From an uncultured Rikenellaceae bacterium (GTDB lineage: Bacteria > Bacteroidota > Bacteroidia > Bacteroidales > VadinHA17): 64,000 nt of DNA. Of the stretch, positions 11,811 through 46,947 are shown piece after piece. A program made the position numbers and the translations under genes. Under the pieces are notes generated by a model. It saw nothing but the letters and a program-made list of their open reading frames with translations. It searched no databases and was not told the DNA's origin. The DNA is taken from positions 36,193-100,192 of the forward strand of contig CAZNYS010000005.1 of the NCBI GenBank assembly GCA_964577305.1, read 5' to 3'. How positions within the stretch are numbered: position 1 is the stretch's first letter; each line of letters begins with the position of its first letter.

Positions 11811-12112
11811 ATTTTTAAAATCATAACAATTAATATCAAATTTAAGAACTTCTGGTAAATATTTAAAATTCTTATTTATTTGAATGAAACAAGAGGATTA
11901 AACCTGAAATAATCCAGGAGTGCTCTGACCGAGATAATGCTTTTAGACACTCCATTAAATCCAGTGTAATTCTGCATTAATTTATGTGTAAATAAAATTC
12001 CAATTATCAATGTAAAATCATATATTTGTTTAATAAGTTCATATATGATTACTTTATGTAAACAATGTTGAATATATTATTTGTGAGTTACACAACATTA
12101 AATCCTAAAGCC

Positions 12113-18842: not shown

Positions 18843-18864
18843 TGCTTTCTATTTTAAGAAATAG

Positions 18865-18900
18865 CGAAAACCTGGCCCAATTGAAATACTGGACCAGGTT
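18865..18900 (-). terminator. Hairpin with T-run after the SusD-like gene (minus-strand orientation)
   Basis: aacctgg...ccaggtt stem (18869..18900). On the minus strand it is followed by tttt. Confidence 0.45.
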
Positions 18901-18912
18901 CATTATTAACAT

Positions 18913-20529
18913 TTAGTAACCCGGATTTTGTGTTAAATTAGGATTTTTATTCAATTCATCTTCAGGAATCGGGAAAAGACTCCTGTGATCACCATTAGGA
19001 CGGTGTGATAACCATGATTTTGTTGTAAAAACCTCGAATCTTATCATATCCTGCCTGCGACGGGCTTCCTGTGCAAACTCCCATCCTAATTCATCCAGAA
19101 ACCTTCCGAATAATACATCTTCCCCTCCTTCAATCTCAACTAAGACTCCTTCTTCTACATAACCATAATTATAAGAGCTTCCCTGCATTAAATCTTCACC
19201 GGTAACAACAGCCTTTGAAGGGTTGTCTTTAAATGCTCTTTCCCTTACCTGGGTAACCAAAGCAGCTGCATCATCAGCAAGTCCTGTCCTCAATAAGCAT
19301 TCTGCTTTCATCATAAGAATATCTCCGTATCTGAATACAGGAACATCATTGCTTAAATGAGCATCAGCTCCCATTTTAAACTCAAATTTTCCCAAACGGT
19401 AACCTTCCATTTCACCTGCCTCGAATATCCCCCTGAGTTCATTCTTAAACTGAAGAGGAGTAACATTATCGAGCATTGAACGGATTGTATCACCACTTGT
19501 TGAAATCATATAACCTGATATCCAGCTATCTTCAAGTCTGGTGTCATCAGGATCATACGTATCAATAAACTGAGGAATACCACAACTGCCTCCATATCCC
19601 CATGGTGGTGCTTTGAAATTCCACACTGACTGAGTGGAGCTTGGTAGTGTTTTTAAATGGGTTCGAAAGTTCATTCCATAAATTTCATCAAAAGGAACAG
19701 TAAAAATCAATTCGCATGAATTTTGGTTCTCGGTAATAAAACAATCACTAAAATTATTTTCAAGCTGATAGGCATCTGAGGCGATTATATCATTACACTC
19801 TGAAATACATTCAGCCCACTTAGCATTACCGGTATATACTTCAGCATTGAGATACATTTTTGCCAGCAATGCCTTGGCAGCCCATTTATTCCAACGCGCA
19901 TAAGTCACAGGACTAACCTCCTCGGAAAGATAAATCAGACTTTCATTAATCTGGCTTACAATAAAATCAAAAACCTCAGTTCTGGTATTTTGTTCAGGTA
20001 AATATCCTTCTTCTATATCGTACATTGTGGTAACCGGAATGTTCCCAAACGCGTCACATAAAATATACAAATAAAATGCTCTTGCTACTTTCAATTCGGA
20101 TAGGGCTGAATTACTTAATTCCTCATTAAGGGGAATAATACCTTCTTCAATCTGATAAATAGCCCTGTTGCAGTTTGTTATTCCCATGTAACATCTGTCC
20201 CATAGGCCGTTTGTATGGCTCTGTAGTGATGTCCAGGTATGCTCATGCATTCTTTGGTAAACACCACCATCATACCATCCTCTGGGTCGTGAACAGGTTG
20301 CAACTTCATCAGAACATTCTTCCATTGTATCGAAATAGCCATGCCATCCATGGTATACATCTCTCAGAGTAGAGTATGCAGGTCCCATTAGAGATGGTAA
20401 GTCTTTAGCCTCAGGAGTAAACTGCTCTGCTGTCAAATCAGAAAACACTTCCTCACTCAAATCAGTACATGAACTCATAGTTATTATGAGTACAGCTACT
20501 GTAAGAATAATATATTTAATAGATTTCAT
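18913..20529 (-). CDS. SusD/RagB family nutrient-binding outer-membrane lipoprotein
   Basis: 538 aa; lipobox (ITMSSCT); TPR-like helical SusD features; immediately downstream of the SusC-like gene. Confidence 0.85.
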   Translation of the reverse strand: MKSIKYIILTVAVLIITMSSCTDLSEEVFSDLTAEQFTPEAKDLPSLMGPAYSTLRDVYHGWHGYFDTMEECSDEVATCSRPRGWYDGGVYQRMHEHTWTSLQSHTNGLWDRCYMGITNCNRAIYQIEEGIIPLNEELSNSALSELKVARAFYLYILCDAFGNIPVTTMYDIEEGYLPEQNTRTEVFDFIVSQINESLIYLSEEVSPVTYARWNKWAAKALLAKMYLNAEVYTGNAKWAECISECNDIIASDAYQLENNFSDCFITENQNSCELIFTVPFDEIYGMNFRTHLKTLPSSTQSVWNFKAPPWGYGGSCGIPQFIDTYDPDDTRLEDSWISGYMISTSGDTIRSMLDNVTPLQFKNELRGIFEAGEMEGYRLGKFEFKMGADAHLSNDVPVFRYGDILMMKAECLLRTGLADDAAALVTQVRERAFKDNPSKAVVTGEDLMQGSSYNYGYVEEGVLVEIEGGEDVLFGRFLDELGWEFAQEARRRQDMIRFEVFTTKSWLSHRPNGDHRSLFPIPEDELNKNPNLTQNPGY

Positions 20530-20552
20530 TTTTATAATAGTTTTATTAGCGA

Positions 20553-23500
20553 TTAAAAAGTAATATTAAATCCAAGAGTATAAGTTCTTGTTGTAGGATA
20601 TTTATCGAGTGGGTCATTCCCTGGAGAAAGGCCATTTCTATTTACTTCCGGGTCAATTCCTGAATAACCTGTAAAGGTCATTAGGTTGAGAACCGATACG
20701 TATATATTTGCGTTTTTAATGAAACTTATTGATTTAACATTAAAATCATAGCCAAGTGTTACGTTATCTATTTTCCAGTAATCGCCATCTTCAATATAAT
20801 AGCTAGTATAATCCTGAATATCTGCCAGCCTGACTTTGCCAAAAACCAGATCTAAACCTGATTTAAGATTATTATAATTTGAAAGTGCAGCTGGATTTTC
20901 AAAAAACATCCTTTGGAAATTAAGGATTTGGAATCCAAAGGCACCCCTCATGTTAATTTCAAGCTCAAAGTTCTTATATTTAAATTTATTATTCCAACTG
21001 GCATAATGTTTCGGCAAACCATTACCTAAAACCTGCATGTCATCAGGTGTTTTATCGGCACTGGCAACAAGCTCACCGTCAGAATTTTCGATTATCCAAT
21101 AACCATCTTCATCAATATCAACAACCTTCCACCCCCAAAAATTTCCAATTGGTTCTCCTACCTTAACCCTATGGGTGCTTGCTTGAATTGGTGGCGTTGT
21201 ATATCCGGTATCGAAGAAATCATTTGTTGTCTCATAGAGATCATTACTTAAAGAAATAAGCTTATTCTTATTAGTTGAGTAGGTAATTAAGGATACCCAT
21301 TCAAAATTCATTGTCTTTACGGGAATTATTTTCAACATAGACTCAATACCCCTGTTTTCAATTTGTCCTACGTTAGCAATAATTGAGCTATAAAGATATG
21401 GAGGTGTAGGCACCTGGTAATTCCATAGCATGTCCTTGGTTAATCTATAGTAATAATCAAGAGTAAAATTGATCTTGCTATTCAAAAATACCATATCCAC
21501 CCCAATATTCGTTTCTACTTTTTTCTCCCACCTTAGGTCTGGATTAGGATTACTCGCAGGTGTAATCTCTTTTATCCATTCACCGTTAACCAAAACATTG
21601 CTTCCATAGGAGAGCCGTGTTAAAGATAAGTAGGGATCTGTTGGAATAGTCCCTGTAACTCCGTATCCGGCTCTTAGTTTCAGGTCATCAAACAGATTTA
21701 CATTTTCCATAAAGGACTCTTCCGTTAAGCGCCATCCAAATGATATTGCAGGAAACATTCCCCATTTATGATTCTCGCCAAATTTTGAAGATCCTTCATA
21801 CCTTAAGCTAGCGAGTAATAAATATTTATCTTTATAATTATAATTCAACCTGCCAAAAAACCCCACAAGCTTTGATAAGCTGCGATAACTATCCATATCA
21901 GCTTTCCCGACCAGTAATGCCCCGCCTAATTCAAGGTTATCAAATGTGAATTCATCAGCAGGGAAATCATAATTTGAAGCCTCAAATTGCTCATACAAAT
22001 ATTCTTGGTAACTATATCCTCCCAACAAAGATATTCTGTGATTGTCAATTATCTTGTTATATTCAGTAGTAAATTCAAGTAGGTTTTCATTATGATTCCT
22101 GTAATCACGTGAGGCATAACCAGTCTGGCCAAGATTCAGGGATTCTGGATTTTCGGAAGTTCTGTAGAATGCTCTTTCCTGGTCCCTTTGATATCTGGAG
22201 AGCAGTAATTTTGATTCTAAACCAGTAAAAGGTCTAAGCGATATACTGCCATAAAATCTCATAACCCTTGCCTTGCTGTAACCAGTAGCCTCTTCCAACA
22301 AGGATACAGGATTGTCATACATATATATTCCACGATTGATCCAGTTGCCGTCATCATCCTTTACTCTGTCAGTTGGATTCCTCCTTATCGCCTGGTTATA
22401 AGCATAACTATTAAAGCTTCCTCCTCCTGTTGTACCTGGATGTTCTTCAAATTTACCATTGAACCCGGCATTTATCCTTAAAACATTATCGAACATAGAA
22501 TGATTAATGTCCAGTCTGCCGTTTAATTGATTAACTCCGGATTTAATGAATATCCCCTGGTCGCTTCTGGTATTAACAGATGCTATATAGTTCGATGTAT
22601 TACTACCTCCTTTAAGAGAGAAGTTATTCATATAACTTACAGGATGGTCTCTCATTATTGCATCAATCCAATCTGTACTATATCCATGATCTATCAAAGA
22701 CATGCCCTCCTCGGAATTTAATCTTCTATAGTCTTCAGCATCAAGTAATTCTGGTTTGCGTGCAATCGTTTGAAAGTTTACATAACCATTGTATTCAATT
22801 GTCGTTGGTGTTACACCCCTGACCTTCTTTGTCGTGATCAGGATCACTCCATTTGTTCCACGGGTTCCGTAAATTGCGGCTGCAGAACCATCTTTTAATA
22901 CATCAATAGATTCAATATCCTGGGGAGCAACAGTATTGAGTTCACCCGGGATACCATCAATGAGTACCAGTGGTGATGTACTTGAAAAGATAGATGTAAT
23001 TCCCCTAAGCATGATCTGTGAATCATCTGTCGGATCTCCACTTGGACTGGTGATCGATAAACCGGCAACTTTGCCCTGAATTAGTTGTCCGGCATCTTTT
23101 ACAGTTCCTACATTAAAGTCCTCCGCTTTAACACTTGATATTGCCGTAGTAACTTCTTCTTTCTTCAAAGTTCCATAACCAATTACTACTATTTCATCAA
23201 TCCCCAGAACATCCTCTTCCATGGTTAGATTAATTACTGACTGATTTCCAATTTCTACACGAATTGTTTTCATTCCTACAAAAGAAAAAACCAGGTATTG
23301 TGAAGTATTATCTACCTCGATAGAGTATGTACCATCCGAGTTGGTGTTAACCCCCGTTAAAGTACCTTCAACAGTAATTGTTACTCCCGGTATGGGAGTA
23401 CCATCCACTCCTGTTACTGTTCCTGTTATCATGCGACTTTGGGCTGAAACAATGCTAATTGAACACATGATAATTAATGTGAATAGCACTATGCGTTTAC

Positions 23501-23561
23501 AGGCTTTTTGAAGCCATTCTTTATAGTAGCTATTACTGCGATAAAATCTAAAATTTGTCAT
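20553..23561 (-). CDS. SusC-like TonB-dependent outer-membrane receptor
   Basis: 1002 aa. CarboxypepD_reg N-terminus (ITGTVTGVDGTPIPGVTITVEG), plug (IESIDVLKDGSAAAIYGTRGTNGVILITTKK), C-terminal barrel ending in F. Confidence 0.9.
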   Translation of the reverse strand: MTNFRFYRSNSYYKEWLQKACKRIVLFTLIIMCSISIVSAQSRMITGTVTGVDGTPIPGVTITVEGTLTGVNTNSDGTYSIEVDNTSQYLVFSFVGMKTIRVEIGNQSVINLTMEEDVLGIDEIVVIGYGTLKKEEVTTAISSVKAEDFNVGTVKDAGQLIQGKVAGLSITSPSGDPTDDSQIMLRGITSIFSSTSPLVLIDGIPGELNTVAPQDIESIDVLKDGSAAAIYGTRGTNGVILITTKKVRGVTPTTIEYNGYVNFQTIARKPELLDAEDYRRLNSEEGMSLIDHGYSTDWIDAIMRDHPVSYMNNFSLKGGSNTSNYIASVNTRSDQGIFIKSGVNQLNGRLDINHSMFDNVLRINAGFNGKFEEHPGTTGGGSFNSYAYNQAIRRNPTDRVKDDDGNWINRGIYMYDNPVSLLEEATGYSKARVMRFYGSISLRPFTGLESKLLLSRYQRDQERAFYRTSENPESLNLGQTGYASRDYRNHNENLLEFTTEYNKIIDNHRISLLGGYSYQEYLYEQFEASNYDFPADEFTFDNLELGGALLVGKADMDSYRSLSKLVGFFGRLNYNYKDKYLLLASLRYEGSSKFGENHKWGMFPAISFGWRLTEESFMENVNLFDDLKLRAGYGVTGTIPTDPYLSLTRLSYGSNVLVNGEWIKEITPASNPNPDLRWEKKVETNIGVDMVFLNSKINFTLDYYYRLTKDMLWNYQVPTPPYLYSSIIANVGQIENRGIESMLKIIPVKTMNFEWVSLITYSTNKNKLISLSNDLYETTNDFFDTGYTTPPIQASTHRVKVGEPIGNFWGWKVVDIDEDGYWIIENSDGELVASADKTPDDMQVLGNGLPKHYASWNNKFKYKNFELEINMRGAFGFQILNFQRMFFENPAALSNYNNLKSGLDLVFGKVRLADIQDYTSYYIEDGDYWKIDNVTLGYDFNVKSISFIKNANIYVSVLNLMTFTGYSGIDPEVNRNGLSPGNDPLDKYPTTRTYTLGFNITF

Positions 23562-23905: not shown

Positions 23906-25246
23906 TTAGTTCATCAAAGAAGGCAATGCAGTGGTAATAAAGGGCACATAGGTTATCATCAGTTGGACAACAACCATAATCAGCAAGAATCGTAAGACAT
24001 AAGGCACCATTGAGGAGATACTTGTCCTGCCAACAGCACTGGCTACAAAAAGTGTAGTTCCCACGGGTGGAGTAACCAATCCTATTATCATGTTTGCAAC
24101 AACCATCACTCCGAAATGAACAGCGGCTAGACCCGTATCCATTCCTATTGCTGCGCTGATAGGAAGAAGAACCGGCACAACTATTAATAAACCAGGTGCA
24201 ACATCTATGAACATTCCAAAAATCAATAAGAATATATTGAGAAAGATTAGCACCAGTATTTTCCTGAGAAGGAAGAATGTATCTTGGGAAATGTCCGTGG
24301 TAAATGTATGAATTATTGCATCGCATGTACCCAGCAGGCCGTTTGTAATAATCTCCGGGGCTTTACCGATACCCAGTGTCCATGCGAATAGACTTGCAAC
24401 TGCCAGGAGGAAACTTAAAGCAGCAGTAGTTTTTGCTGCAGAAACAAATAACCTTGGTAAATCTTTAATTTTTAATTGCTTATAAAGGAAAAGACTTATT
24501 ATGAGCGCATATACAACTGCAACAGCAGAAGCTTCTGTTGCAGTAAAAATGCCACCCATTATCCCACCAAAAATAATTACTGCCAGGAAAAGTGCCGGTA
24601 ATGATTTACGGGTACTTTTCAACTTTTCACCTAAAGTGGATTTCTTTTCAATACTTACTGAAAATTTTCTCCCTATGAATTTGCTTACACCCATTAAACC
24701 CAATCCAATAAGAATTCCAGGACCTACACCTGCAATAAATAGTTTCTCAATTGACACATTAGCAGTTGTTCCGTAAATAAGAAGCGGGATACTTGGCGGT
24801 ATTAATGCTCCTGTAGTACCTGCACAGGCAGCCAGTGCTGTTGAATATGGCCGGGAGTATCCGTTCTTTTCCAGGGCAGGGATCATCATACCCCCAATAG
24901 CAGCACATGTTGCTGCAGAAGCTCCTGATACTGCTCCGAACATCTGGGATGATACAACTGTTACAACCGGTAAGCCTGAACGTTTGTGTCCCAGGTAAGA
25001 TTTTACAAAATCTATGAGTTTCTGGGATAATCCACCCTGGCTCATGATCTCACCTGCCAGGATAAAAAATGGTACCGCAAGAAAGGCATAGAAATTTGAT
25101 AATGACCTCGATGTTTCCAGTGCGATCATTAATGGGTCTATACCGATATATAAAAGGGCAGCCAGTGATGACAATAACATGCAATATGCTATAGGGACAT
25201 TCAGAAAAAGAAGTATAATGAATACTATTACAAGTATTAATATCAT
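23906..25246 (-). CDS. dctM: TRAP transporter large permease subunit (DctM family)
   Basis: The start is taken as the internal Met (MILILVIVFIILLF) at 25246, 1 nt after the dctQ stop; the track start at 25381 would overlap dctQ. Polytopic, about 446 aa. Confidence 0.8.
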   Translation of the reverse strand: MILILVIVFIILLFLNVPIAYCMLLSSLAALLYIGIDPLMIALETSRSLSNFYAFLAVPFFILAGEIMSQGGLSQKLIDFVKSYLGHKRSGLPVVTVVSSQMFGAVSGASAATCAAIGGMMIPALEKNGYSRPYSTALAACAGTTGALIPPSIPLLIYGTTANVSIEKLFIAGVGPGILIGLGLMGVSKFIGRKFSVSIEKKSTLGEKLKSTRKSLPALFLAVIIFGGIMGGIFTATEASAVAVVYALIISLFLYKQLKIKDLPRLFVSAAKTTAALSFLLAVASLFAWTLGIGKAPEIITNGLLGTCDAIIHTFTTDISQDTFFLLRKILVLIFLNIFLLIFGMFIDVAPGLLIVVPVLLPISAAIGMDTGLAAVHFGVMVVANMIIGLVTPPVGTTLFVASAVGRTSISSMVPYVLRFLLIMVVVQLMITYVPFITTALPSLMN

Positions 25247-25247
25247 A

Positions 25248-25700
25248 TTATATTGATTTAACTGTTTGCAGGAAATCCCTTGCTCCATAAATAAGCATAA
25301 AAATGCAGCCTGCCGGACAAGCTCCATATACCAGTGCACGACTAACCTCCATAGCCGGCATAATCCAACTTCGTATTCCAATCGTAACTTCAGTACTGAA
25401 AAAGAGAAGAAGCACTATAGCTGACAGGCCTATTGCCTTACTTATAAGCATAAACGTTATCAAGGCTTTCCCTTTCAGCTTTCTGGAGAGATAATCAAAA
25501 ACATAATGTGCATTTTCCCTCACAGCAACAGCTGCACCAAGGAAAGTCAGCCATACCATCAATACCTGTACTAATTCATCTGCCCAGTAAATGGAAAACT
25601 TAAGAATAAATCTGCAGAATACGTTTGTCGCCATTGTAAGTGACATCACAGCAAGTATAATGAACAAAAGATAATCTAGTGTTTTATCGATAATTTTCAT
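25248..25700 (-). CDS. dctQ: TRAP transporter small permease subunit (DctQ family)
   Basis: 150 aa, four hydrophobic helices, positioned between the DctP and DctM genes. Confidence 0.75.
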   Translation of the reverse strand: MKIIDKTLDYLLFIILAVMSLTMATNVFCRFILKFSIYWADELVQVLMVWLTFLGAAVAVRENAHYVFDYLSRKLKGKALITFMLISKAIGLSAIVLLLFFSTEVTIGIRSWIMPAMEVSRALVYGACPAGCIFMLIYGARDFLQTVKSI

Positions 25701-25724
25701 GTTTCTTATATCCTGTATGGTATT

Positions 25725-26795
25725 TCACTTTTTATCATAATTAAGATAATCACCTGCCTGTGATTTAATTTCTTCAAGCAACTCTAATGGAAGTTCCGGA
25801 TTTTCTGACAAATACTCATCAACAAACCTATCTGCTCTTTCAATAAAGGGCTTTTTATCTTCAATAGCATTTACAACAACATTATTTTGTATCATCTCTT
25901 CAAGGGAATGTTTGGTTGTCTCCGTCCAGATATTGTCAAATAATGGTATGATTATCTGAGATACCTCATTTATCCTGTCCCTATATTTCTTATCCAGTGA
26001 ATTGAACCACTTCTCATTTACAACTAGGATATGCTGGTTCGCAAAATGTTCTGTAAGCGTGAAGCAATTACATCCTGTTTCATAATATTTATAAGAGATA
26101 AATATCCTGGCACTGTTCTCAGCTCCGTCAACTACTCCGGTTTTAAGTCCCTGGAAAAGCTCAGAATGCGGTATTGGTGTTGCCGTGGCTCCAAGTGCAT
26201 TGATTGAATTTATCATAACCGGGCTTTCCATAACACGGATTTTCATTCCCTTCAGGTCATCAGGTGTTTGAATACAACCCTTCCCTTCCTTTTGTTTATA
26301 GAACATATTTCGGAATCCTGTACTGTAAAACCCTAGGCCTAAAAGTTTCTTGGCCCTTAATCTATCAAGAAATTTTCTTCCCGTATCACCATAAAGAACT
26401 CTCTGATGATGTTCTTCGGTGATAAAAAGGTATGGAAGGTCAAGCAGACTAAATGCCGGGTCAATAGTGGTAATAACGGATGAGTTTATCTGTACCATTT
26501 CCACTATACCGAAATAACAGTTCTCCAGCAACTGCCTCTCGGTACCAATCATTCCCTGATCATAAAATACAACCTCAATTTCCCCTTCCTCGATGCCATG
26601 CTCTTTTGATTCTTTTTCAATCTCTTGCTTAAAAAGATTTGATACCTCCCATATCTTGCTGTCAAAATTAAGTTCAGTGGCCAGTCTGAATCTTAATTTT
26701 GGACCTGTCACTTTGGAATCATCAGTGCCTGTATTAATGTCTTTGCAACCAGCTAAAATCAGTATAACAAAAGATAAAAAAATAGTTCTTCCCAT
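25725..26795 (-). CDS. dctP: TRAP transporter periplasmic solute-binding protein (DctP family), lipoprotein
   Basis: 356 aa; lipobox LAGC; DctP-like length and context. Ligand unknown. Confidence 0.75.
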   Translation of the reverse strand: MGRTIFLSFVILILAGCKDINTGTDDSKVTGPKLRFRLATELNFDSKIWEVSNLFKQEIEKESKEHGIEEGEIEVVFYDQGMIGTERQLLENCYFGIVEMVQINSSVITTIDPAFSLLDLPYLFITEEHHQRVLYGDTGRKFLDRLRAKKLLGLGFYSTGFRNMFYKQKEGKGCIQTPDDLKGMKIRVMESPVMINSINALGATATPIPHSELFQGLKTGVVDGAENSARIFISYKYYETGCNCFTLTEHFANQHILVVNEKWFNSLDKKYRDRINEVSQIIIPLFDNIWTETTKHSLEEMIQNNVVVNAIEDKKPFIERADRFVDEYLSENPELPLELLEEIKSQAGDYLNYDKK

Positions 26796-26801
26796 ATTTA
26801 C

Positions 26802-27455
26802 CTACTCGCTTTCGATTACGGCTTTCATAGACCTTGCCATTGATTCCAGTATAATATAGCATGATGCAGCACCTGCATCAATAAAACCCAGAGACCTTTC
26901 TCCCAGTCTGGCTGACCGGCCCTTTTTTGCTATCATTTCTTTTGTTGAATTCATACCTTCTCTTGCTCCACTTGCCATATCACTGAGAACAACATCAAAG
27001 CTGTTTCCACTTTTTATGCTTTCTTCCAATGATACTGCAGCAGGCACTAGTGCATCAATAAGCGTTTTATCACCAGGGCTTGCACCACATATCTCTAAAG
27101 TTGATTCTATTGCTGCTTTTAGCATTTCATTGAAGGTTGAGGCAGTAATCCTGTCTTTATTCCTGGATTGCTCATAAAACGTTTCGAAAAAAGTTCCATA
27201 GATCGGACCCATCGCACCCCCTATCTCCATCAATAACACTTCTCCTATTATCCTGAAACCATCTGAAAGAGAAGTATCCTCATTTAGTTTCTGTTCTGCG
27301 AGTGCAAATCCCTTACTCATATTGACCCCATGATCTCCATCCCCAATCTGACCATCTAGTTCACTAAGGTATTGTCTATTTTTCCTGATAGAATTTATAA
27401 TATCCTTAATTACCTGGTATCCCTTTTTATTGTTAATCCATTCTGTTTTTCCCAT
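26802..27455 (-). CDS. dhaL: Dihydroxyacetone-kinase family, ADP/ATP-binding subunit DhaL
   Basis: DGQIGDGDHGVNM motif; 217 aa. Confidence 0.85.
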   Translation of the reverse strand: MGKTEWINNKKGYQVIKDIINSIRKNRQYLSELDGQIGDGDHGVNMSKGFALAEQKLNEDTSLSDGFRIIGEVLLMEIGGAMGPIYGTFFETFYEQSRNKDRITASTFNEMLKAAIESTLEICGASPGDKTLIDALVPAAVSLEESIKSGNSFDVVLSDMASGAREGMNSTKEMIAKKGRSARLGERSLGFIDAGAASCYIILESMARSMKAVIESE

Positions 27456-28454
27456 CTAAAACTGTTTAAAATGAACGGCATCAGCTGGATAGTCTACAAG
27501 TGTCTTCAGTTCATCGTCTAACTTCATGATAGTCAATGTAACACCCATCATATCAAGGGAGGTGAAGAAATCACCGACATAAGACTTGTATGTACCAATA
27601 CCTTGATTAGAGAGAATTGCCTTCACTTTACTGTGGAAAACATATAATTCCATTAAAGGTGTAGCTCCTAATCCGGATACCAGTACTACTACTTCATCTC
27701 CCTTAATAAAGGGAAGATCAGGTAGAACAATATCTGTGCAGACTTTTGCCATTTCATCTGCAGTTTTTAAATCAGAAACCGCAATACCTGGTTCTCCATG
27801 GTGCCCAATTCCCACTTCCATTTTCCCGGGTTCAATAGTGAAGTTAGGTTTACCAACTGAAGGTATTGTACAGGGTGTAAGGCCAATACCTATACTGCGG
27901 GTATAGTCAATTGCTTTTTGGGCAGCCGCTATCACTTCATCAAGTGAAGCACCTGTAGCTGCCTTTGCACCTCCAACTTTCCACATTAAAACCTCACCTG
28001 CCACTCCTCTCCTTTTTTCACGCTCGGTGATTGGTGCTGAGGGTACATCATCATTGGCTATAACAGTTTTCACGGTAATTCCTTCCTTTTCTGCCTGTTT
28101 CCTGGCTATCTTCACGTTCATATTATCCCCGGAATAATTTCCATACAGGCAGGCCACACCCTGACCACTGTCTGCTGCCTTAAACGCATCGTAGAATGAC
28201 TTTGCAGTCGGCGAGGTAAAAATTTCACCTACAGCTACAGCATCAACCATATTTTTACCAAGGTAACCTATAAAAGCAGGTTTATGCCCTGAGCCTCCTC
28301 CTGTAACTATTCCTACCTTTCCTTTTACTGGAGCTTCTAGGTATTTTAGTACTCTTAAATTTTTTGTTCCTGCTACCATTTTCTCGTTAGCTGCTTTAAA
28401 ACCTGCAACCATTTCGTCGACCAGATAATCCGGATCATTAATAATTCTCTGCAT
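27456..28454 (-). CDS. dhaK: Dihydroxyacetone-kinase family, substrate-binding subunit DhaK
   Basis: TGGGSGHKPAF and VGIGHHGEPG motifs; 332 aa; abuts dhaL with no gap. Confidence 0.85.
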   Translation of the reverse strand: MQRIINDPDYLVDEMVAGFKAANEKMVAGTKNLRVLKYLEAPVKGKVGIVTGGGSGHKPAFIGYLGKNMVDAVAVGEIFTSPTAKSFYDAFKAADSGQGVACLYGNYSGDNMNVKIARKQAEKEGITVKTVIANDDVPSAPITEREKRRGVAGEVLMWKVGGAKAATGASLDEVIAAAQKAIDYTRSIGIGLTPCTIPSVGKPNFTIEPGKMEVGIGHHGEPGIAVSDLKTADEMAKVCTDIVLPDLPFIKGDEVVVLVSGLGATPLMELYVFHSKVKAILSNQGIGTYKSYVGDFFTSLDMMGVTLTIMKLDDELKTLVDYPADAVHFKQF

Positions 28455-28465
28455 GGTGTTTATTT

Positions 28466-28885
28466 CTAAGTTTTCTGATCAGGGAATTCCACGTCTTCAT
28501 AATACAGGTAATCATCAAGGGTAGCAGGAGGGATAAAAACACATATTATCTTCATATCCTTGTATCCATCATTGCGTACCATATGAATTGATCCTGGCTT
28601 AAAGAGTACTGCAGTACCTGCCCTGATCTCACTGACATTACCATTTATATATACTTTACCGGCACCACTGGCAATATAGATCAACTCTTCCATTTCGGGA
28701 TGGGCATGTGCCGGCTTTACGGTATTACCGGGCTTAATTATCACAGTATTAAGGGAAAAGTTCGTGCTGAGGTCCATATCAGGGGTTATTAACCATTTCA
28801 GCGACCTACCCTGAAGTTCCTTAGCCTCGATCCTGTCTTCATAGATAATATTTTTCATACTTGCATATTTAGTGATAAAGGGCAA
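28466..28885 (-). CDS. Cupin-domain protein
   Basis: HAHPEMEELIYIASG...G(x)5...H pattern (cupin motifs 1 and 2). The start may be the internal Met at 28858. Confidence 0.6.
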   Translation of the reverse strand: MPFITKYASMKNIIYEDRIEAKELQGRSLKWLITPDMDLSTNFSLNTVIIKPGNTVKPAHAHPEMEELIYIASGAGKVYINGNVSEIRAGTAVLFKPGSIHMVRNDGYKDMKIICVFIPPATLDDYLYYEDVEFPDQKT

Positions 28886-29876
28886 CTTCCCCTTTAACTT
28901 GGTTTGAGCTTAAAATATAATCTATTGATTTGTAAGTGAAAATTTTCGTCTGAGTTGGCCCCACTCCTTTTTCTACAACCTGTTTTTTGATTTTACCGCT
29001 CGGTGTTCCTTCATAGACAAATAAATTAAGAGCTCTGTCTCCCCTTCGATTTCCAACAACCACAGAAGGTTTCCCACTAAAGGTTCCAGCGCTCAGTCCA
29101 TGACCGAACTCCAAAACCGACTGGTAAATCCTTTTCCATCCTTCACGTTCTTTAATATATACATTTAAAGTATCTCCATGAAAAGGCTCGATGGTGATTA
29201 ATTCCTTTATTTCGTCATCATTAATATCGAAAAATACAAATTCACTCACCTCATTTTCAAACAATACGGTCATTGCCCAGTCTGAATTAAATCCGGGTGC
29301 TATTTCAAAAATACCTTCTTTACCTGATATATATATTGCCTCTGTACCCGTAAGGTTTGCTTTAATCATGCCATGATTGCGGGTCACATTATTAATAAAC
29401 TTTTTGGGTTCATCATGCAGATTACCTTGCTGATCTAGAGGGATAATATACAATTCGCCAGGCAAACTCCAATCTTCAGGATATTTTTTGAAAACACTCA
29501 CGGAGGCTGCAAACAACCAGTTGACATTGTCTACGGTAAGGATTTCGCAACGGTGAGCAAAAGGAAGATCGATTAATTTTTTTGTATGCCAATCCCCTTT
29601 CCTTTCCTCATGCAGGTATATAGCTGCTTCTGCCCCTTTAAAAGGAGGAAAGAGGCCCATTACTGATACAAGCCTTTTATTATCACCCGGAACAATAACC
29701 ATGCACATGGTCCCTCCGGGTCCATTAGATATTTTTACCATTTCGCTTTCTTCCAACCCAATAAGGTAAAACGGGTATTCTCCCTCTGAACCAACACCAT
29801 AATAAATCTGCCCGTTGAAATCGAGTACATCAACTGTATATACCTGGGGCAAATTAGTTATTATAGTCTTTTTCAT
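28869..29876 (-). CDS. Hypothetical protein, probably a beta-propeller-like repeat fold
   Basis: 335 aa; no signal peptide; repetitive beta-rich sequence. It overlaps the upstream gene by 4 nt. Confidence 0.5.
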   Translation of the reverse strand: MKKTIITNLPQVYTVDVLDFNGQIYYGVGSEGEYPFYLIGLEESEMVKISNGPGGTMCMVIVPGDNKRLVSVMGLFPPFKGAEAAIYLHEERKGDWHTKKLIDLPFAHRCEILTVDNVNWLFAASVSVFKKYPEDWSLPGELYIIPLDQQGNLHDEPKKFINNVTRNHGMIKANLTGTEAIYISGKEGIFEIAPGFNSDWAMTVLFENEVSEFVFFDINDDEIKELITIEPFHGDTLNVYIKEREGWKRIYQSVLEFGHGLSAGTFSGKPSVVVGNRRGDRALNLFVYEGTPSGKIKKQVVEKGVGPTQTKIFTYKSIDYILSSNQVKGEVALYH

Positions 29877-30346
29877 TCTTTATCTTTTTGCTGTTTTGCT
29901 CCTGTATATTCCCTTTCGATTTCATAAATTCTATCAATCTTAGTCTGAGACCTTCCTCCCGGAACATAACGAACTGATATCCATACTTTAACTAACCTTT
30001 TAGCTATTTCATCACTGACAACTTTAGCTCCCATAGTCAGGATATTTGCATTATTACTGAGTATCGATCTTTCAACAGAATATTCATCCGTACACGTTAC
30101 GGCATAAGCACCAGGTACCTTGTTGGCAGCTAGGCACATACCAAGTCCTGTACCGCATAACAGTACAGCCCTGTCATGTTTCCCTTCTGTAACAGCCCTG
30201 GCAACTATGTATGCGGTATTGGCATATATGATATCATCACTACCGTAATCCTCAACCTCGAATCCCAATGAAGAAATATATTCTATTAATACCTTTTTAA
30301 GAGCTGAAGCATTTGGATCACAACCTATTGCTATTGGTTTGTTCAT
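29873..30346 (-). CDS. RpiB/LacA/LacB family sugar-phosphate isomerase
   Basis: IAIGCDPNA...LLCGTGLGMCLAANKVPG signature; 157 aa. Confidence 0.8.
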   Translation of the reverse strand: MNKPIAIGCDPNASALKKVLIEYISSLGFEVEDYGSDDIIYANTAYIVARAVTEGKHDRAVLLCGTGLGMCLAANKVPGAYAVTCTDEYSVERSILSNNANILTMGAKVVSDEIAKRLVKVWISVRYVPGGRSQTKIDRIYEIEREYTGAKQQKDKE

Positions 30347-31038
30347 AATTCAGACAATATCTCCCTTACCCTGTTAAGGCCTGTCCTTCCACTATTATAT
30401 ACAGGCACCTTAATGTCCTTTAAAAAAGGTTCAAGAGCACTCATTGATACCTGTGCCATGGTTATTACATCCACCTTATCTGAAAGTTTCTCAATCTCTG
30501 ATAAGAGGATTTCATTATGCATATCCACATTACCCGTTTTGATTTTTTCAAATGCCTCACTGGAAAGTACTGTGGTTATTTCTATTTTTTTTCCTGCTTC
30601 CTCTGCTGCAATGTTTAATAATCGTTCTGAAGGAATTACGGTTGATGGTACCGTTGCCAGTAATCCTATTCTGGACCCTTCAGAAACAGCTATATCCATC
30701 ATAGGACGGTCTATCTGAACCATTGGTATATCAATCAGGGGACGGGCGACTTCCACTGCCCTGCTGAAAGTTGAACATGCAAGCAAAATAAGATCTACAC
30801 CAGCCTCCTGGAGAAAGTGAGCATACGTAGTAAATTTAAAAAAATTGACCTTTGGTATAACACCTGGTTTCTGCATGAAATTCAGGTTCTGAACGGTGTC
30901 ATCTATATGATGAACAACTGTTACTTCAGGGATAATCTCTTGAATGAAAGGTTCCACACTCTTTGATGAAATTAAAGCGGCATGTATTATACCCAATGTT
31001 TTGTTGCTAAGATCTTTCATAAAAATATTTCTAAACAA
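30343..31038 (-). CDS. Asp/Glu/hydantoin-racemase superfamily protein (single-cysteine variant)
   Basis: LILLACSTF (first catalytic-Cys motif) is present. The position of the second motif reads VITMAQVSM, with no Cys. About 225-231 aa. Confidence 0.55.
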   Translation of the reverse strand: MFRNIFMKDLSNKTLGIIHAALISSKSVEPFIQEIIPEVTVVHHIDDTVQNLNFMQKPGVIPKVNFFKFTTYAHFLQEAGVDLILLACSTFSRAVEVARPLIDIPMVQIDRPMMDIAVSEGSRIGLLATVPSTVIPSERLLNIAAEEAGKKIEITTVLSSEAFEKIKTGNVDMHNEILLSEIEKLSDKVDVITMAQVSMSALEPFLKDIKVPVYNSGRTGLNRVREILSEL

Positions 31039-31570
31039 ATATGTTAATATATTTTACTGTATCACTAACTGGAATAATCTGATGAGTCTCAAGTGCATTG
31101 AAATACAGAGCATCTCCTTTATTCATATGATAATCAATATCTCCTACCTGAAACTTCATGGATCCTTCAATTACATAAATGAATTCTTCACCAACATGCG
31201 ATAAATGATGCTCTTTTACCTCCCCCTTCCTGACGACAAAAAGGAATGGTTGCATTCTTTTACCATGATATTCTGAAGCAAAAGGAAATATATTATATCC
31301 ACGCTCCGTAAGCACAGTTTCATTCTCAGAAGTACCGGAAGAAACAAGGATTGATCCGTAATTACCATTTTTCTCCAATAGAGCAGAAACTCTGGTACCA
31401 AGTGCATCCGCAAGTTTTATAAGAGTAGCAACAGATGGAAATACCTTATTAGTTTCAATTTTTGATATCATACTCTTCGATAAATTACATTTATCAGATA
31501 TCTCCTGGATAGTACGATTCTGGCTGATTCTTAATTTTCTAATAAGAGTGCCTAATTTTATTTCGTTCAT
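31031..31570 (-). CDS. XRE-family HTH transcriptional regulator with C-terminal cupin sensor domain
   Basis: N-terminal HTH_3 (LGTLIRKLRISQNRTIQEISDKCNLSKSMISKIE) and C-terminal cupin (EEFIYVIEGSMKF...GDALYF). First gene of the operon. Confidence 0.8.
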   Translation of the reverse strand: MNEIKLGTLIRKLRISQNRTIQEISDKCNLSKSMISKIETNKVFPSVATLIKLADALGTRVSALLEKNGNYGSILVSSGTSENETVLTERGYNIFPFASEYHGKRMQPFLFVVRKGEVKEHHLSHVGEEFIYVIEGSMKFQVGDIDYHMNKGDALYFNALETHQIIPVSDTVKYINIFV

Positions 31571-31792
31571 TGAATTTAATAAAAGTTGTTAATTATATGT
31601 CAACATAGTTTCTTTAACAAATATAATATTTTATAACAATCTACAAAAATAAAATAAATGTTAATATTCCTCAAAGATTAGATTTAATAATCACTCAAAC
31701 TATTATGAATCATGAAGATTTAAATAAAGGATATGAGGTTTGCAGACTATTTAATCTATAAATAATATAGTCTGAGGATTATGATTTTTCTT

Positions 31793-32014
31793 TTATATCT
31801 GGATATCTTCAGGTTTAATATCTTCCTTATTACCTGCATCTGGAGGGGTTGAGCTTAACACTCCGTTTTCATCAACATAAGCGATCATATCATCAAGACC
31901 GCTCTTTTTTTCGTTATCTTTTTTGGCTAATCTCTTCTTTTCTTTCTCTTTTCTTTTCTTAGCCTTTTTATTTCTTACATCTTTCTTTTTAAATGTTTCC
32001 TGTGATCTTCCCAT
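31793..32014 (-). CDS. Small lysine-rich basic protein, unknown function
   Basis: 73 aa; KKAKKRKEKEKKRLAKK tract. Coding status is not proven. Confidence 0.4.
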   Translation of the reverse strand: MGRSQETFKKKDVRNKKAKKRKEKEKKRLAKKDNEKKSGLDDMIAYVDENGVLSSTPPDAGNKEDIKPEDIQI

Positions 32015-32069
32015 AATAATTCTTTAGCACATTTAAATAATAATTATCTGCCTACAAACACTTTATTGC

Positions 32070-46869: not shown

Positions 46870-46947
46870 GGTTATTTAAAATAATTTTGTTTGTCAATTT
46901 TAGGATATTTCTTATCAAAGCGGAGGTGGCATATGAGTGAAAAGAAT

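Follow-up and report, generated by a model that had tools for sequence, protein, structure and literature searches.

The 64,000-nucleotide stretch of contig CAZNYS010000005.1 from an uncultured Rikenellaceae bacterium analyzed here (hereafter the window) carries, on its minus strand between positions 31570 and 23906, a real operon of ten genes that is widely conserved in plant-glycan-degrading bacteria. Most likely, this operon imports an acidic sugar and degrades it to a small ketose that is phosphorylated by a dihydroxyacetone-type kinase, and its substrate is most likely a small anionic sugar, namely a keto- or urono-type sugar acid of five or six carbons. The operon is a mosaic of a front end and a back end, each of which has other partners elsewhere. 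Transporter-linked operons for the catabolism of sugar acids are a known kind; this one contains an enzyme family without an assigned function and a re-purposed member of a known superfamily. An earlier note on this DNA, made from the letters and translations, had read the ten genes as one unit that imports an acidic sugar derivative, converts it to a small ketose, phosphorylates the latter, and isomerizes the product; taken as a whole, this interpretation is partly supported.

Organization of the operon

The open reading frame (ORF) listing, together with Pfam and NCBIfam scans, delineates ten consecutive genes, given below in the order from the regulator to the last transporter subunit.

31031–31570, minus strand: XRE-family helix-turn-helix regulator with a C-terminal cupin domain, 179 residues, first gene (Pfam HTH_3 47.9 bits, Cupin_2 48.9 bits)
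30343–31020, minus strand: Rac, protein with the Asp/Glu-racemase fold, 225 residues (PF01177 54.3 bits)
29873–30346, minus strand: RpiB/LacAB-family isomerase, 157 residues (PF02502 141.6 bits)
28869–29876, minus strand: propeller (initially "UNK"), 335 residues (no Pfam or NCBIfam match)
28466–28858, minus strand: small monocupin, 130 residues from its ATG (Cupin_2, PF07883, 60.2 bits)
27456–28454, minus strand: DhaK, substrate-binding subunit of the kinase, 332 residues (Dak1 365.7 bits)
26802–27455, minus strand: DhaL, nucleotide-binding subunit of the kinase, 217 residues (Dak2 172.5 bits)
25725–26795, minus strand: DctP, solute-binding lipoprotein of a tripartite ATP-independent periplasmic (TRAP) transporter, 356 residues (PF03480 191.7 bits)
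25248–25700, minus strand: DctQ, small membrane subunit of the TRAP transporter (PF04290 85.1 bits)
23906–25246, minus strand: DctM, large membrane subunit of the TRAP transporter (PF06808 344.6 bits; TIGR00786 358 bits)

Gene starts were refined by public gene calls and exact-match proteins before the intergenic distances were computed; these are, in the order from the regulator to DctM, 10, −4, −4, 10, 11, 0, 6, 24, and −3 nt. The co-orientation and tight packing described in the earlier note are confirmed by these gaps of −4 to 24 nt, nine of its family assignments agree with Pfam and NCBIfam, and the tenth product, the 335-residue protein, has no match in either library. The TTG start at 31038 that had been given for Rac is probably too long, since the ATG at 31020 matches the 225-residue protein P0121, which is found 100% identical on 24 public contigs. 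For the cupin, a JGI gene call uses the same ATG as that chosen here (130 residues). The start of DctM was refined to the ATG overlapping the stop codon of DctQ; the Pfam match begins at residue 51 of the listed 491-residue TTG ORF, which we judge to be over-extended. From spacing and synteny only, we infer that the ten genes are co-transcribed.

Modular structure across genomes

At least 30 independent genomes or contigs (Bacteroidota, Verrucomicrobiota, and unplaced metagenome contigs) share the order Rac–RpiB–propeller–cupin–DhaK–DhaL, so the arrangement is not due to chance. Orthologs of the regulator precede Rac at 62–65% identity in L002, L007, and L086 (L-numbers denote genomic loci and P-numbers proteins, as labelled in the analysis). 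Comparison of 80 loci around propeller homologs and 90 loci around Rac homologs distinguishes the variants V1–V5. The window type, V1, consists of Rac, RpiB, the propeller, the cupin, DhaK, and DhaL, with an optional XRE-cupin regulator in front, and of a transporter that may be a TRAP system, a major facilitator superfamily (MFS) protein of the anion:cation symporter (ACS) type, or an SSF protein. Its carriers are Bacteroidales, one of them the isolate Bacteroides oleiciplenus YIT 12058, and Verrucomicrobiota; further examples lie on unplaced metagenome contigs. V2, mostly from rumen and gut Bacteroidales, has the order RpiB–DhaK–DhaL–GntP–propeller–reductase and lacks Rac and the cupin. The remaining variants have no propeller. 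V3 combines the TRAP transporter, the XRE-cupin regulator, and Rac with an iron-containing alcohol dehydrogenase (Fe-ADH), LarA, and glycerate kinase. V4 consists of GntR, an MFS transporter, Rac, and the cupin; ~2–4 kb upstream lie a YiaK equivalog and a TIM-barrel isomerase. V5, seen in at least 11 metagenome loci, contains a sugar-epimerase-like TIM barrel, Rac, a split transketolase, a tartronate-semialdehyde reductase (TSAR), an MFS transporter, and glycerate kinase; it is apparently undescribed, has its front end in common with the window operon, and may represent a transketolase-based route for the acid handled by the window operon.

Several individual loci deserve description. In L086:1290-12771, on a metagenome-assembled genome (MAG) of Sedimentisphaerales, which we take to belong to the Planctomycetota, the TRAP transporter, the XRE-cupin regulator, and Rac are followed by the Fe-ADH, a LarA equivalog (nickel-pincer racemase), and glycerate kinase, and in L091:10001-14697 the pair of Rac and glycerate kinase is kept with the same Fe-ADH nearby. 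The loci of V5 type (L112, L132, L148, L166, L168, and others, e.g. L148:6336-11884), whose TIM barrel resembles psicose epimerase or IolO and whose MFS protein is of ACS type, often lie beside GH31, GH3, or GH39 genes (GH, glycoside hydrolase).

Sequence identities indicate that the front end, made up of the transporter, the regulator, Rac, and usually the cupin, is orthologous across the variants. Relative to the window proteins, DctP of V3 (L086) is 67% identical, and the regulator and Rac are 65% and 70% identical across variants; the MFS protein of V4 is 77% identical to that of the V1 locus L002, and the MFS protein of V5 is 54% identical to that of verrucomicrobial V1 loci. RpiB, the propeller, and DhaK/DhaL make up the back end. 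The single ten-gene unit that had been claimed is thus better described as two modules, each occurring separately with other partners. In sister operons, GntP and TSAR replace the TRAP transporter, Rac, and the cupin, while a split transketolase, the reductase, and glycerate kinase replace the propeller, RpiB, and DhaK/DhaL.

Among the 80 propeller loci, DhaK and DhaL are present in 41, RpiB in 40, Rac and the cupin in 17 each, the reductase in 49, and GntP in 31. The reductase lies directly downstream of the propeller, on either strand, in 46 of them. Rac never co-occurs there with the reductase or with GntP, nor does the cupin with the reductase, and glycerate kinase is found in none of these loci. 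That Rac/cupin and GntP/reductase stand in for each other implies a single pathway that can be entered in either way. The reductase of the sister loci scores as a GarR-equivalog TSAR (469 bits against an NCBIfam cut-off of 397), and the TSARs of V2 and V5 share 67% identity. In L174, which represents a distant branch, a reductase that shares its Pfam domains with this enzyme extends 8 nt over the start of the propeller, and the locus also includes a CUT1 ABC transporter and GH51, with a PL22 oligogalacturonate lyase (PL, polysaccharide lyase) ~2 kb downstream. The ties of the propeller to TSAR, and of Rac to TSAR, glycerate kinase, and transketolase, argue that short acid-aldehydes at the level of tartronate semialdehyde and glycerate belong to this metabolism. 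This link to C3 acids, which emerges from the genomic context, was not foreseen in the earlier note.

The propeller family

The AlphaFold (AF2) model of the 335-residue protein is all-β with a pLDDT of 91 and can be described with confidence as a seven-bladed β-propeller. In a Foldseek comparison with the PDB, the only enzyme among the top matches is the fungal aldos-2-ulose dehydratase (AUDH, 4a7z; E 3.3e-9, TMq 0.75). AUDH is a propeller-cupin enzyme that acts on the C3 enolate of 2-keto sugars. The EPTP propellers of LGI1 match the model equally well, so that the fold match to AUDH alone is not specific. The profile of the AUDH propeller, PF22301 (AUDH_beta_propeller), has a cut-off of 27 bits; the window protein scores 15.5 and the best relative tested, P0025, 24.8, and 15 of the 27 members examined give matches at E < 0.1, all of them sub-threshold. 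Searches of PDB sequences linked the propeller to no solved structure, and the profile search did not align 4a7z. The description of this protein as unknown thus stands in that no family model matches it, and is revised by the remote similarity to the dehydratase.

An alignment of 27 homologs contains 59 invariant positions, including five His and several Glu, Asp, and Arg residues, as well as an FG-GAP-like motif DxDxDG...ELxTIEPFHG. The family is encoded by 317 of the species-representative genomes scanned, and its size is put at about 270–430 sequence clusters. After clustering at 50% identity, an exhaustive profile search yielded 273 clusters with E <= 1e-30, rising to 679 with E <= 1e-3. 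Nearly all members are single-domain proteins of 330–350 residues. Natural fusions join RpiB to the propeller (P0028) and the propeller to the cupin (P0400, in L173). In P0339 (624 residues, from a low-GC organism), the propeller is fused to an N-terminal portion that, from its sequence, looks like a Cof-type HAD phosphatase; this hints that in some lineages the substrate of the propeller may arise by dephosphorylation of a sugar phosphate. Locus L173 itself is rich in sulfatases and has an SSF transporter in place of the TRAP or MFS system; one 751-residue call in it (L173:12453-14708) includes Dak2 (DhaL) and GH43 domains and represents either a real fusion or a missed stop or start.

Rac and the cupin

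Rac has the fold of Asp/Glu/hydantoin racemases and matches the family hidden Markov model above the cut-off (PF01177, 54.3 bits against 31). Its AF2 model has a pLDDT of 90, with Foldseek TM scores of 0.70–0.77 to Glu and Asp racemases at no more than 20% identity. As the earlier note had observed, the protein contains exactly one cysteine, Cys82, which belongs to the first catalytic motif, LACSTF (CSTF). Cys82 never varies among the 24 aligned members, all of which have AQVSMS at the second catalytic position and share many other invariant polar residues. The pair of catalytic cysteines of the two-base racemase mechanism is therefore missing, and Rac should not be filed as a racemase. Its sequence fits a one-base reaction, such as that of a 1,2-proton-shift isomerase, an eliminase, or a decarboxylase, and we propose that it may act as an isomerase, epimerase, or lyase next to the carboxylate of the imported acid. 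Rac is unusually conserved: more than 1276 homologs were found, the top 120 of which, at 65–87% identity, are spread across phyla.

The cupin retains the metal-binding motifs HAHPEMEE...G and PGSIHMVRN with their His/His/Glu...His ligands (HAHPEMEELIYIASG and GTAVLFKPGSIHMVRN in the translation). In 16 of the 17 propeller loci with a cupin, Rac is present as well; while the cupin tracks Rac in its occurrence, in one lineage it is joined to the propeller (P0400).

The kinase and the transporter

DhaK and DhaL most resemble the split enzymes of L. lactis and E. coli that work with the phosphotransferase system (PTS). The best PDB matches of DhaK are 3ct4 from L. lactis (246.6 bits) and 1oi2 from E. 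coli (221.5 bits). The motifs GGGSGH, YxGD, and GxHGEPG of DhaK and DxxxGDxDHG of DhaL are kept in comparison with 1uoe/1oi2, 3ct4, and 2btd, the DxxxGDGDHG segment of DhaL aligning with that of E. coli DhaL (2btd). The alignment also retains the equivalents of His56, Asp109, and His218 of E. coli DhaK, which we take to be the residues that bind dihydroxyacetone and participate in catalysis. DhaL exceeds the cut-off of its equivalog model (TIGR02365, 178.5 against 138.3 bits), and DhaK scores below that of its own (TIGR02363, 345.9 against 406.25). The absence of DhaM, which had been pointed out before, extends to the relatives: at ~40 DhaK/DhaL loci there is no conserved third kinase gene, the next gene downstream being GntP, DctP, or an unrelated one, and no HPr homolog was found in the window or in the compared loci. 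Since the operon provides no DhaM or PTS partner, ATP is presumed to be the phosphoryl donor.

All components of the TRAP transporter score above the cut-offs (PF03480, PF04290, and PF06808, as well as NF037995 and TIGR00786), and the translation of DctP contains a lipobox, LAGC. In TRAP binding proteins, a conserved Arg pairs with the carboxylate of the ligand. The corresponding segment of DctP, GFRNMF, aligns with GARSLY of 4p1l and GSRSFY of 4x8r. The 15 best PDB matches of DctP are TRAP binding proteins, which, by the depositors' work, bind glucuronate or galacturonate (hexuronates). Across the loci, three types of anion-sugar transporter, namely TRAP, ACS-type MFS, and GntP, serve the same enzymes. 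The Arg, the closest relatives of DctP, and the transporters of the sister loci agree with the earlier suggestion that the imported ligand is probably acidic.

The RpiB-like isomerase

The RpiB-like protein belongs to its broad family (PRK05571, 139.8 bits against a cut-off of 135), and scores below the cut-offs for ribose-5-phosphate isomerase B proper (TIGR01120, 111.3 against 138.65) and for the D-erythrulose-4-phosphate isomerase DerI (NF051858, 133.5 against 240). The catalytic Cys of the CGTG motif is kept in all 30 orthologs. The best PDB match is Brucella RpiB (5ifz), presumably EryI of the erythritol pathway; the motif LSNNA is common to both. In E. coli RpiB, His99 is responsible for ring opening, and His10, Arg133, and Arg137 form the phosphate site. 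At the corresponding positions of the window protein, His99 is replaced by Ser, His10 by Pro, and Arg137 by Lys, whereas Arg133 is kept. The equivalent of His99 is missing in all 30 orthologs, and Arg133 is a Gly in those of the GntP variant.

Median identities to the window proteins differ between the Rac/cupin variant and the GntP/reductase variant for RpiB (64 and 41%), and hardly at all for DhaK (71 and 67%), DhaL (46 and 43%), and the propeller (48 and 46%). The nearly equal similarity of the latter three makes it probable that they do the same job in V1 and V2, whereas the drop for RpiB points to an upstream substrate specific to each variant or to a diverged function. In L006:9550-15211, a V1-type RpiB (60% identical to that of the window) stands with the propeller, DhaK, DhaL, GntP, and the reductase, without Rac or the cupin; this hybrid shows that the swapping of entry and exit modules does not depend on the type of RpiB.

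Proposed pathway and its alternatives

A tentative reconstruction places the operon, as part of a polysaccharide utilization locus (PUL), on a redox-neutral route in which the acid is isomerized, the propeller cleaves a C–C bond to release dihydroxyacetone, and DhaK/DhaL convert the latter to dihydroxyacetone phosphate (DHAP). The route should be redox-neutral because the operon contains no oxidoreductase. The lipoprotein DctP and DctQM would import the acid, and the XRE-cupin regulator would sense it. Rac and the RpiB-like isomerase would then shift or epimerize its carbonyl by one-base enediol chemistry, giving a 2-ketose-type acid (HOCH2-CO-CHOH-CHOH-...-COO−). The AUDH-like propeller, working with the cupin, would form a metal-bound C2–C3 enediolate and cut the C3–C4 bond in a retro-aldol reaction, which would leave dihydroxyacetone and a short acid-aldehyde, the latter being glyoxylate if the starting acid has five carbons and tartronate semialdehyde if it has six. 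AUDH stabilizes the same kind of enediolate intermediate. DhaK/DhaL would finally phosphorylate dihydroxyacetone to DHAP, presumably with ATP, so that the order of the genes would be that of the steps. We infer in this way the reactions of Rac, RpiB, the propeller, and the cupin, as well as dihydroxyacetone as the kinase substrate and the chain length.

The fusions of RpiB with the propeller and of the propeller with the cupin, together with the fixed gene order, argue that these three proteins act consecutively and before the kinase. A choice of chain lengths also accounts for the presence or absence of the accessory enzymes. With a C5 acid in the systems that combine a TRAP or MFS transporter with Rac, V1 would yield dihydroxyacetone and glyoxylate and need no reductase, as observed, and the transketolase of V5 would yield xylulose-5-phosphate and tartronate semialdehyde, for which the reductase and glycerate kinase are needed, as also observed. 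With a C6 keto-uronate in the GntP variant, V2 would yield dihydroxyacetone and tartronate semialdehyde and need the reductase that is found there. The scheme is the only one found that leaves every annotation at face value.

Several observations weigh against this reconstruction. To our knowledge, a retro-aldolase built as a β-propeller has no precedent, and the link to AUDH is at the level of the fold only, with an identity of ~14%. The reconstruction does not explain within the operon what becomes of glyoxylate or tartronate semialdehyde, or what the cupin does; different chain lengths have to be assigned to the variants to reconcile the transketolase with the propeller, and the loci that combine Rac with Fe-ADH, LarA, and glycerate kinase (L086 and L091), which have no cleavage enzyme, are not accounted for. 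The correlation between RpiB type and variant is blurred by L006, where a V1-type RpiB accompanies GntP and the reductase. The resemblance of the RpiB-like protein to Brucella RpiB/EryI, its DerI score of 133 bits, and the retention of Arg133 would fit a route through erythrulose. Finally, the adjoining glycoside hydrolases vary (GH31, GH3, GH39, GH95, GH127, GH16, and GH92) and favor no particular acid sugar.

The route through erythrulose, although rather unlikely in our estimate, is a live rival. It would proceed by decarboxylation of a β-keto acid: Rac would convert a 2-keto acid, e.g. 2-oxo-L-threo-pentonate, into the 3-keto acid, the propeller, the cupin, or both would release CO2 and erythrulose, DhaK/DhaL would phosphorylate erythrulose in the manner of LerK/DerK, and RpiB would turn the phosphate into erythrose-4-phosphate, with the cupin as a possible analog of LerI; in the GntP variant, the β-hydroxyacid dehydrogenase would reach this 3-keto acid by oxidizing an aldonate. 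DhaK-family erythrulose kinases are established, as is the decarboxylation of β-keto acids to ketoses by SgbH/UlaD and OtnC, and we count both as precedents. YiaK converts a 2,3-diketo acid to a 3-keto acid, and in L089 a YiaK equivalog precedes Rac and the cupin by ~2.4 kb. The mutual exclusion of Rac and the dehydrogenase (0 of 80 loci) would reflect two ways to one intermediate, release of CO2 would leave nothing unaccounted for where neither an oxidoreductase nor an enzyme for a leftover fragment is encoded, and the lack of glycerate kinase in all 80 loci is in its favor. The relation to Brucella RpiB (5ifz) through LSNNA and the DerI score of 133.5 bits also speak for it, and the loss of the ring-opening His in 30 of 30 orthologs suits acyclic tetrose phosphates. 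The proposed substrate, 2-oxo-L-threo-pentonate (C5H8O6), is a documented plant metabolite (PMC6225978). However, the RpiB-propeller fusions would then join non-consecutive steps, and RpiB diverges by variant whereas the kinase that would feed it does not. The dehydrogenase is a GarR equivalog, 67% identical to the one linked to transketolase and glycerate kinase, so that oxidation of an aldonate has to be assumed ad hoc; in addition, the phosphate-binding residues of RpiB are incomplete, and nothing in the residues of DhaK suggests a substrate bigger than dihydroxyacetone. The earlier note had also put the kinase before RpiB; import of an acid and formation of a ketose for the kinase survive in this rival, while that order is made questionable by the fusions, the divergence of RpiB, and its phosphate residues.

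The hexuronate binders closest to DctP would equally suit the pathway of unsaturated uronates, an improbable reading in which a KdgF-like cupin and a DhuI-like RpiB (5-keto-4-deoxyuronate, DKI, to DKII) precede phosphorylation of the HOCH2-CO end of DKII by DhaK/DhaL, the reductase of the sister variant gives 2-keto-3-deoxy-6-phosphogluconate (KDPG), and Rac and the propeller generate or epimerize an unsaturated or 4-substituted uronate. KdgF and streptococcal DhuI are precedents for a cupin and an RpiB/LacAB protein in such roles, a single-base racemase fold would suit C4/C5 β-elimination, and in L174 the propeller and dehydrogenase stand beside a CUT1 ABC transporter with PL22 ~2 kb away. 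Save for that PL22, the window and the annotated loci contain neither a polysaccharide lyase nor GH88 or GH105, PDB searches with the cupin and the RpiB-like protein gave no entry named KdgF or DhuI, completing the route would need a reductase that the window operon lacks, and the links to TSAR, glycerate kinase, and transketolase would go unexplained. It is more improbable again that the propeller and cupin are a literally split AUDH, in which the former dehydrates a 2-keto sugar or acid, the latter isomerizes the enone, and DhaK/DhaL phosphorylate the hydroxymethyl-ketone, the substrate being anhydrofructose-like or osone-like and possibly made by the neighboring GH31. AUDH is indeed the only enzyme among the top structural matches, PF22301 is detected below threshold in 15 of 27 members, gene order and fusion reproduce the domain order of AUDH, and GH31 includes the α-glucan lyases, which make anhydrofructose. 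Yet the GH31 proteins of the window match dextranase- and α-xylosidase-type enzymes best, with no α-glucan lyase among the named matches, anhydrofructose is neutral in contrast to what the anion-sugar transporters and the carboxylate-binding Arg of DctP imply, a phosphorylated dehydration product would not be a central metabolite, and half of the family loci lack the cupin and have the reductase instead. Just as improbable are two independent, co-regulated modules, one for uptake and isomerization of C3 acids such as hydroxypyruvate, tartronate semialdehyde, or glycerate-type compounds (TRAP, regulator, Rac, and cupin), the other for a neutral ketose (RpiB, propeller, and DhaK/DhaL). Each module does occur without the other, and Rac repeatedly lies beside glycerate kinase, TSAR, and a sub-threshold Hyi-like TIM barrel, the classical set of a glycerate pathway, but in at least 30 loci the genes of the two ends alternate in one constant order and have stop codons that overlap start codons, the cupin of the front end is joined to the propeller of the back end in P0400, and the interchange of Rac/cupin with GntP/reductase implies one pathway.

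Other candidates were tried and rejected. A sulfoquinovose pathway, prompted by GH31, the anion-type TRAP transporter, and a YihU-like reductase, does not agree with the GH31 of the window, which is far nearer dextranase and α-xylosidase types than YihQ, or with the sister-locus reductase, which passes the cut-off for GarR and not that for sulfolactaldehyde reductase. Glyoxylate carboligase (Gcl) as a missing link was dismissed, the thiamine-pyrophosphate enzyme near one propeller locus being like pyruvate oxidase or acetolactate synthase. The identities KdgF for the cupin and DhuI for the RpiB-like protein found no PDB sequence matches so named. Aceric acid, Kdo, Dha, apiose, and 4-O-methylglucuronate were considered on paper; none of them explains DhaK/DhaL, RpiB, and TSAR together, and the GH families differ between genomes. 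An allantoin/ureide pathway, which shares the racemase-fold, cupin, Ldh_2, Hyi-like, GlxR, and GlxK families, was rejected because there are no amidohydrolases and the cluster lies in glycan-degrading loci.

Comparison with known systems

A literature search retrieved no description of the window gene set or of the sister clusters, which agrees with the earlier statement that no described pathway has exactly this set. None of the signature enzymes YiaK, LyxK, SgbH, OtnK, OtnC, UxaC, UxuA/B, KduI/D, YihS/V/T, or RuBisCO-like proteins was detected by Pfam or NCBIfam among the ten products. The operon resembles E. coli yiaK-S/ula (2,3-diketo-L-gulonate and L-ascorbate) in the TRAP transporter for keto-sugar acids (YiaMNO), in the cupin-like YiaL, in the conversion of an acid sugar to a phosphorylated ketose through keto-acid intermediates, and in the YiaK equivalog upstream of Rac and the cupin in L089 (397 bits against a cut-off of 316). 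It differs in having no YiaK, LyxK (an FGGY kinase), SgbH/UlaD, or SgbU/SgbE, with DhaK/DhaL, the racemase-fold protein, the RpiB-like isomerase, and the propeller instead, and the matches of its DctQ and DctM to YiaM and YiaN are far below the equivalog cut-offs. Stack and co-workers reportedly described in 2020, in work on ascorbate, a WD40-like enzyme that rearranges 2,3-diketogulonate.

With the tetritol pathways of M. smegmatis and Brucella, the operon shares a DhaK-family kinase and an RpiB-family isomerase without the ring-opening His. Those pathways, however, handle neutral polyols with dehydrogenases, whereas the window operon imports an anion and has no oxidoreductase, its kinase has two subunits and is closest to the PTS-type DhaK/DhaL, its isomerase falls short of the DerI cut-off, and the fusions suggest that RpiB acts before the kinase. 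The Otn pathway (LtnD, OtnI, OtnK, and OtnC) and the D-apionate pathways of the Gerlt laboratory follow the same logic as the sister operon, with an enzyme of the β-hydroxyacid dehydrogenase family, a 2-oxo/3-oxo shift, and a kinase and decarboxylase, and end in DHAP or erythrulose; they, too, were found through the co-location of transporters and enzymes. The window has neither the DUF1537 kinase nor the class-II-aldolase-type decarboxylase nor the TIM-barrel OtnI, the dehydrogenase of the sister operon scores as GarR and not LtnD (204 against a cut-off of 350), and the propeller, Rac, and the cupin have no counterpart there.

Fungal AUDH (4a7z) likewise has a seven-bladed propeller followed by a cupin, an arrangement repeated in the bacterial fusions, but it is a secreted or cytosolic protein of ~900 residues with a lectin domain that acts on neutral 1,5-anhydrofructose or glucosone, whereas the bacterial propellers have ~335 residues, belong to operons for anionic sugars, and in ~60% of loci are accompanied by the reductase instead of a cupin. 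The sister operons share an acid transporter (an ACS-type MFS protein or another kind), TSAR (a GarR/GlxR equivalog), and glycerate kinase with E. coli garPLRK/gudPD and gcl-hyi-glxR-glxK, although there are no homologs of GarL, GarD, or Gcl, and the window operon lacks the reductase and glycerate kinase. The sulfo-Embden–Meyerhof–Parnas (sulfo-EMP) pathway is similar in its isomerase, its cleavage into a C3 unit and an acid-aldehyde, and its reductase, and the sulfo-transketolase (sulfo-TK) pathway in the split-transketolase variant; the GH31 proteins neighboring the window operon are, however, not sulfoquinovosidase-like.

Genomic surroundings

The following features flank the operon.

31618–31651, minus strand: putative promoter region; a pattern search gave the Bacteroidetes-type −7 motif TAnnTTTG twice, with starts at 31651 and 31625
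20553–23561, minus strand: SusC (Pfam)
18913–20529, minus strand: SusD (Pfam)
16593–18842, minus strand: GH31 (Pfam)

The TAnnTTTG motifs lie 55–81 nt upstream of the ATG of the regulator; as a rough estimate gives ~5 chance occurrences in 8.8 kb, it is their position alone that is suggestive of a promoter. Scans for sigma-70 promoters and intrinsic terminators performed no better than on shuffled sequence. Between the sigma-70 gene and the regulator of the operon, the minus strand also encodes a lysine-rich ORF of 73 residues (MGRSQETFKKKDVRNKKAKKRKEKEKKRLAKK..., 31797-32018); three public contigs identical to the window (L083-L085) carry a gene call for it, without a Pfam match.

Directly downstream of the operon, beyond an AT-rich gap of 344 nt, lies the SusC gene, which with SusD and GH31 (16593–23561) probably forms a separate transcription unit. 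The same SusC/SusD/GH31 set, at 62–69% identity, is found upstream of the operon in L002, GH31 adjoins Rac in several metagenome loci, and either GH31 or a remnant of it (a DUF5110 fragment in L086) lies beside Rac in other phyla. By genome, the glycoside hydrolases near the module are GH31 and GH127 in the window, GH3 and GH39 in Bacteroides, GH95 or GH16 in Verrucomicrobia, and GH92, GH43, and GH106 elsewhere; L045 (Bacteroides oleiciplenus YIT 12058) has the order SusCD-GH3-GH39-Rac-RpiB-propeller-cupin-DhaKL-DctPQM. Two paralogous GH31 genes of the window (12065-14434, plus strand, and 16593-18842, minus strand) bracket GH127 (14492-16435, plus strand), and the best PDB matches of the minus-strand GH31 are the GH31 α-glycosidase 6jr6 and α-xylosidases, not sulfoquinovosidase. 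A GH39 gene at 46948-48642, 51% identical to the GH39 directly upstream of Rac elsewhere, is flanked by two divergent DUF5695 proteins of ~910 residues (44098-46869, minus strand, and 48892-51618, plus strand); this region (44098-51618), 15 kb away, may belong to the same regulon as the operon. Two paralogous DPP-IV/S9 peptidases on the minus strand, 32 kb apart (7535-9859, 774 residues, and 41733-44069, 778 residues), flank the glycan-utilization region, and a GH18 gene lies at 9984-11216.

Implications

Possibly, though far from certainly, the operon represents an undescribed modular family of sugar-acid pathways with a cofactor-independent, metal-dependent C–C lyase (the propeller), a carbonyl-shifting isomerase (Rac), and a DhaM-less kinase. 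With the same reserve, the lyase might be either a retro-aldolase or a β-keto-acid decarboxylase acting on keto sugar acids, and the family might perhaps range over Bacteroidota, Verrucomicrobiota, the Sedimentisphaerales MAG, and a distant branch whose relatives carry the label Spirochaetia. A candidate for the substrate is an abundant yet overlooked plant acid, such as a breakdown product of ascorbate (2-oxo-L-threo-pentonate or 2,3-diketogulonate) or an unusual uronate from side chains of hemicellulose or pectin.

The existence of the operon would not surprise a specialist, but the propeller family, the DhaM-less kinase, and the swappable modules are concrete, testable leads. Three interchangeable back ends (the propeller with DhaK/DhaL; transketolase with reductase and glycerate kinase; Fe-ADH with LarA and glycerate kinase) are combined with one front end, and since the transporter, regulator, and Rac are orthologous, the identity of the DctP ligand would constrain all variants. 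If the proposal is true, an orphan propeller family found in rumen, gut, wetland, and freshwater metagenomes would gain a function, a new fold would be added to the C–C lyases acting on sugars, and there would be a test of how split DhaK/DhaL kinases work in PTS-poor phyla. Its embedding in PULs bears on which plant or dietary components the carriers harvest, and the acid itself would be a carbon source of gut and rumen Bacteroidales that is absent from current metabolic reconstructions.

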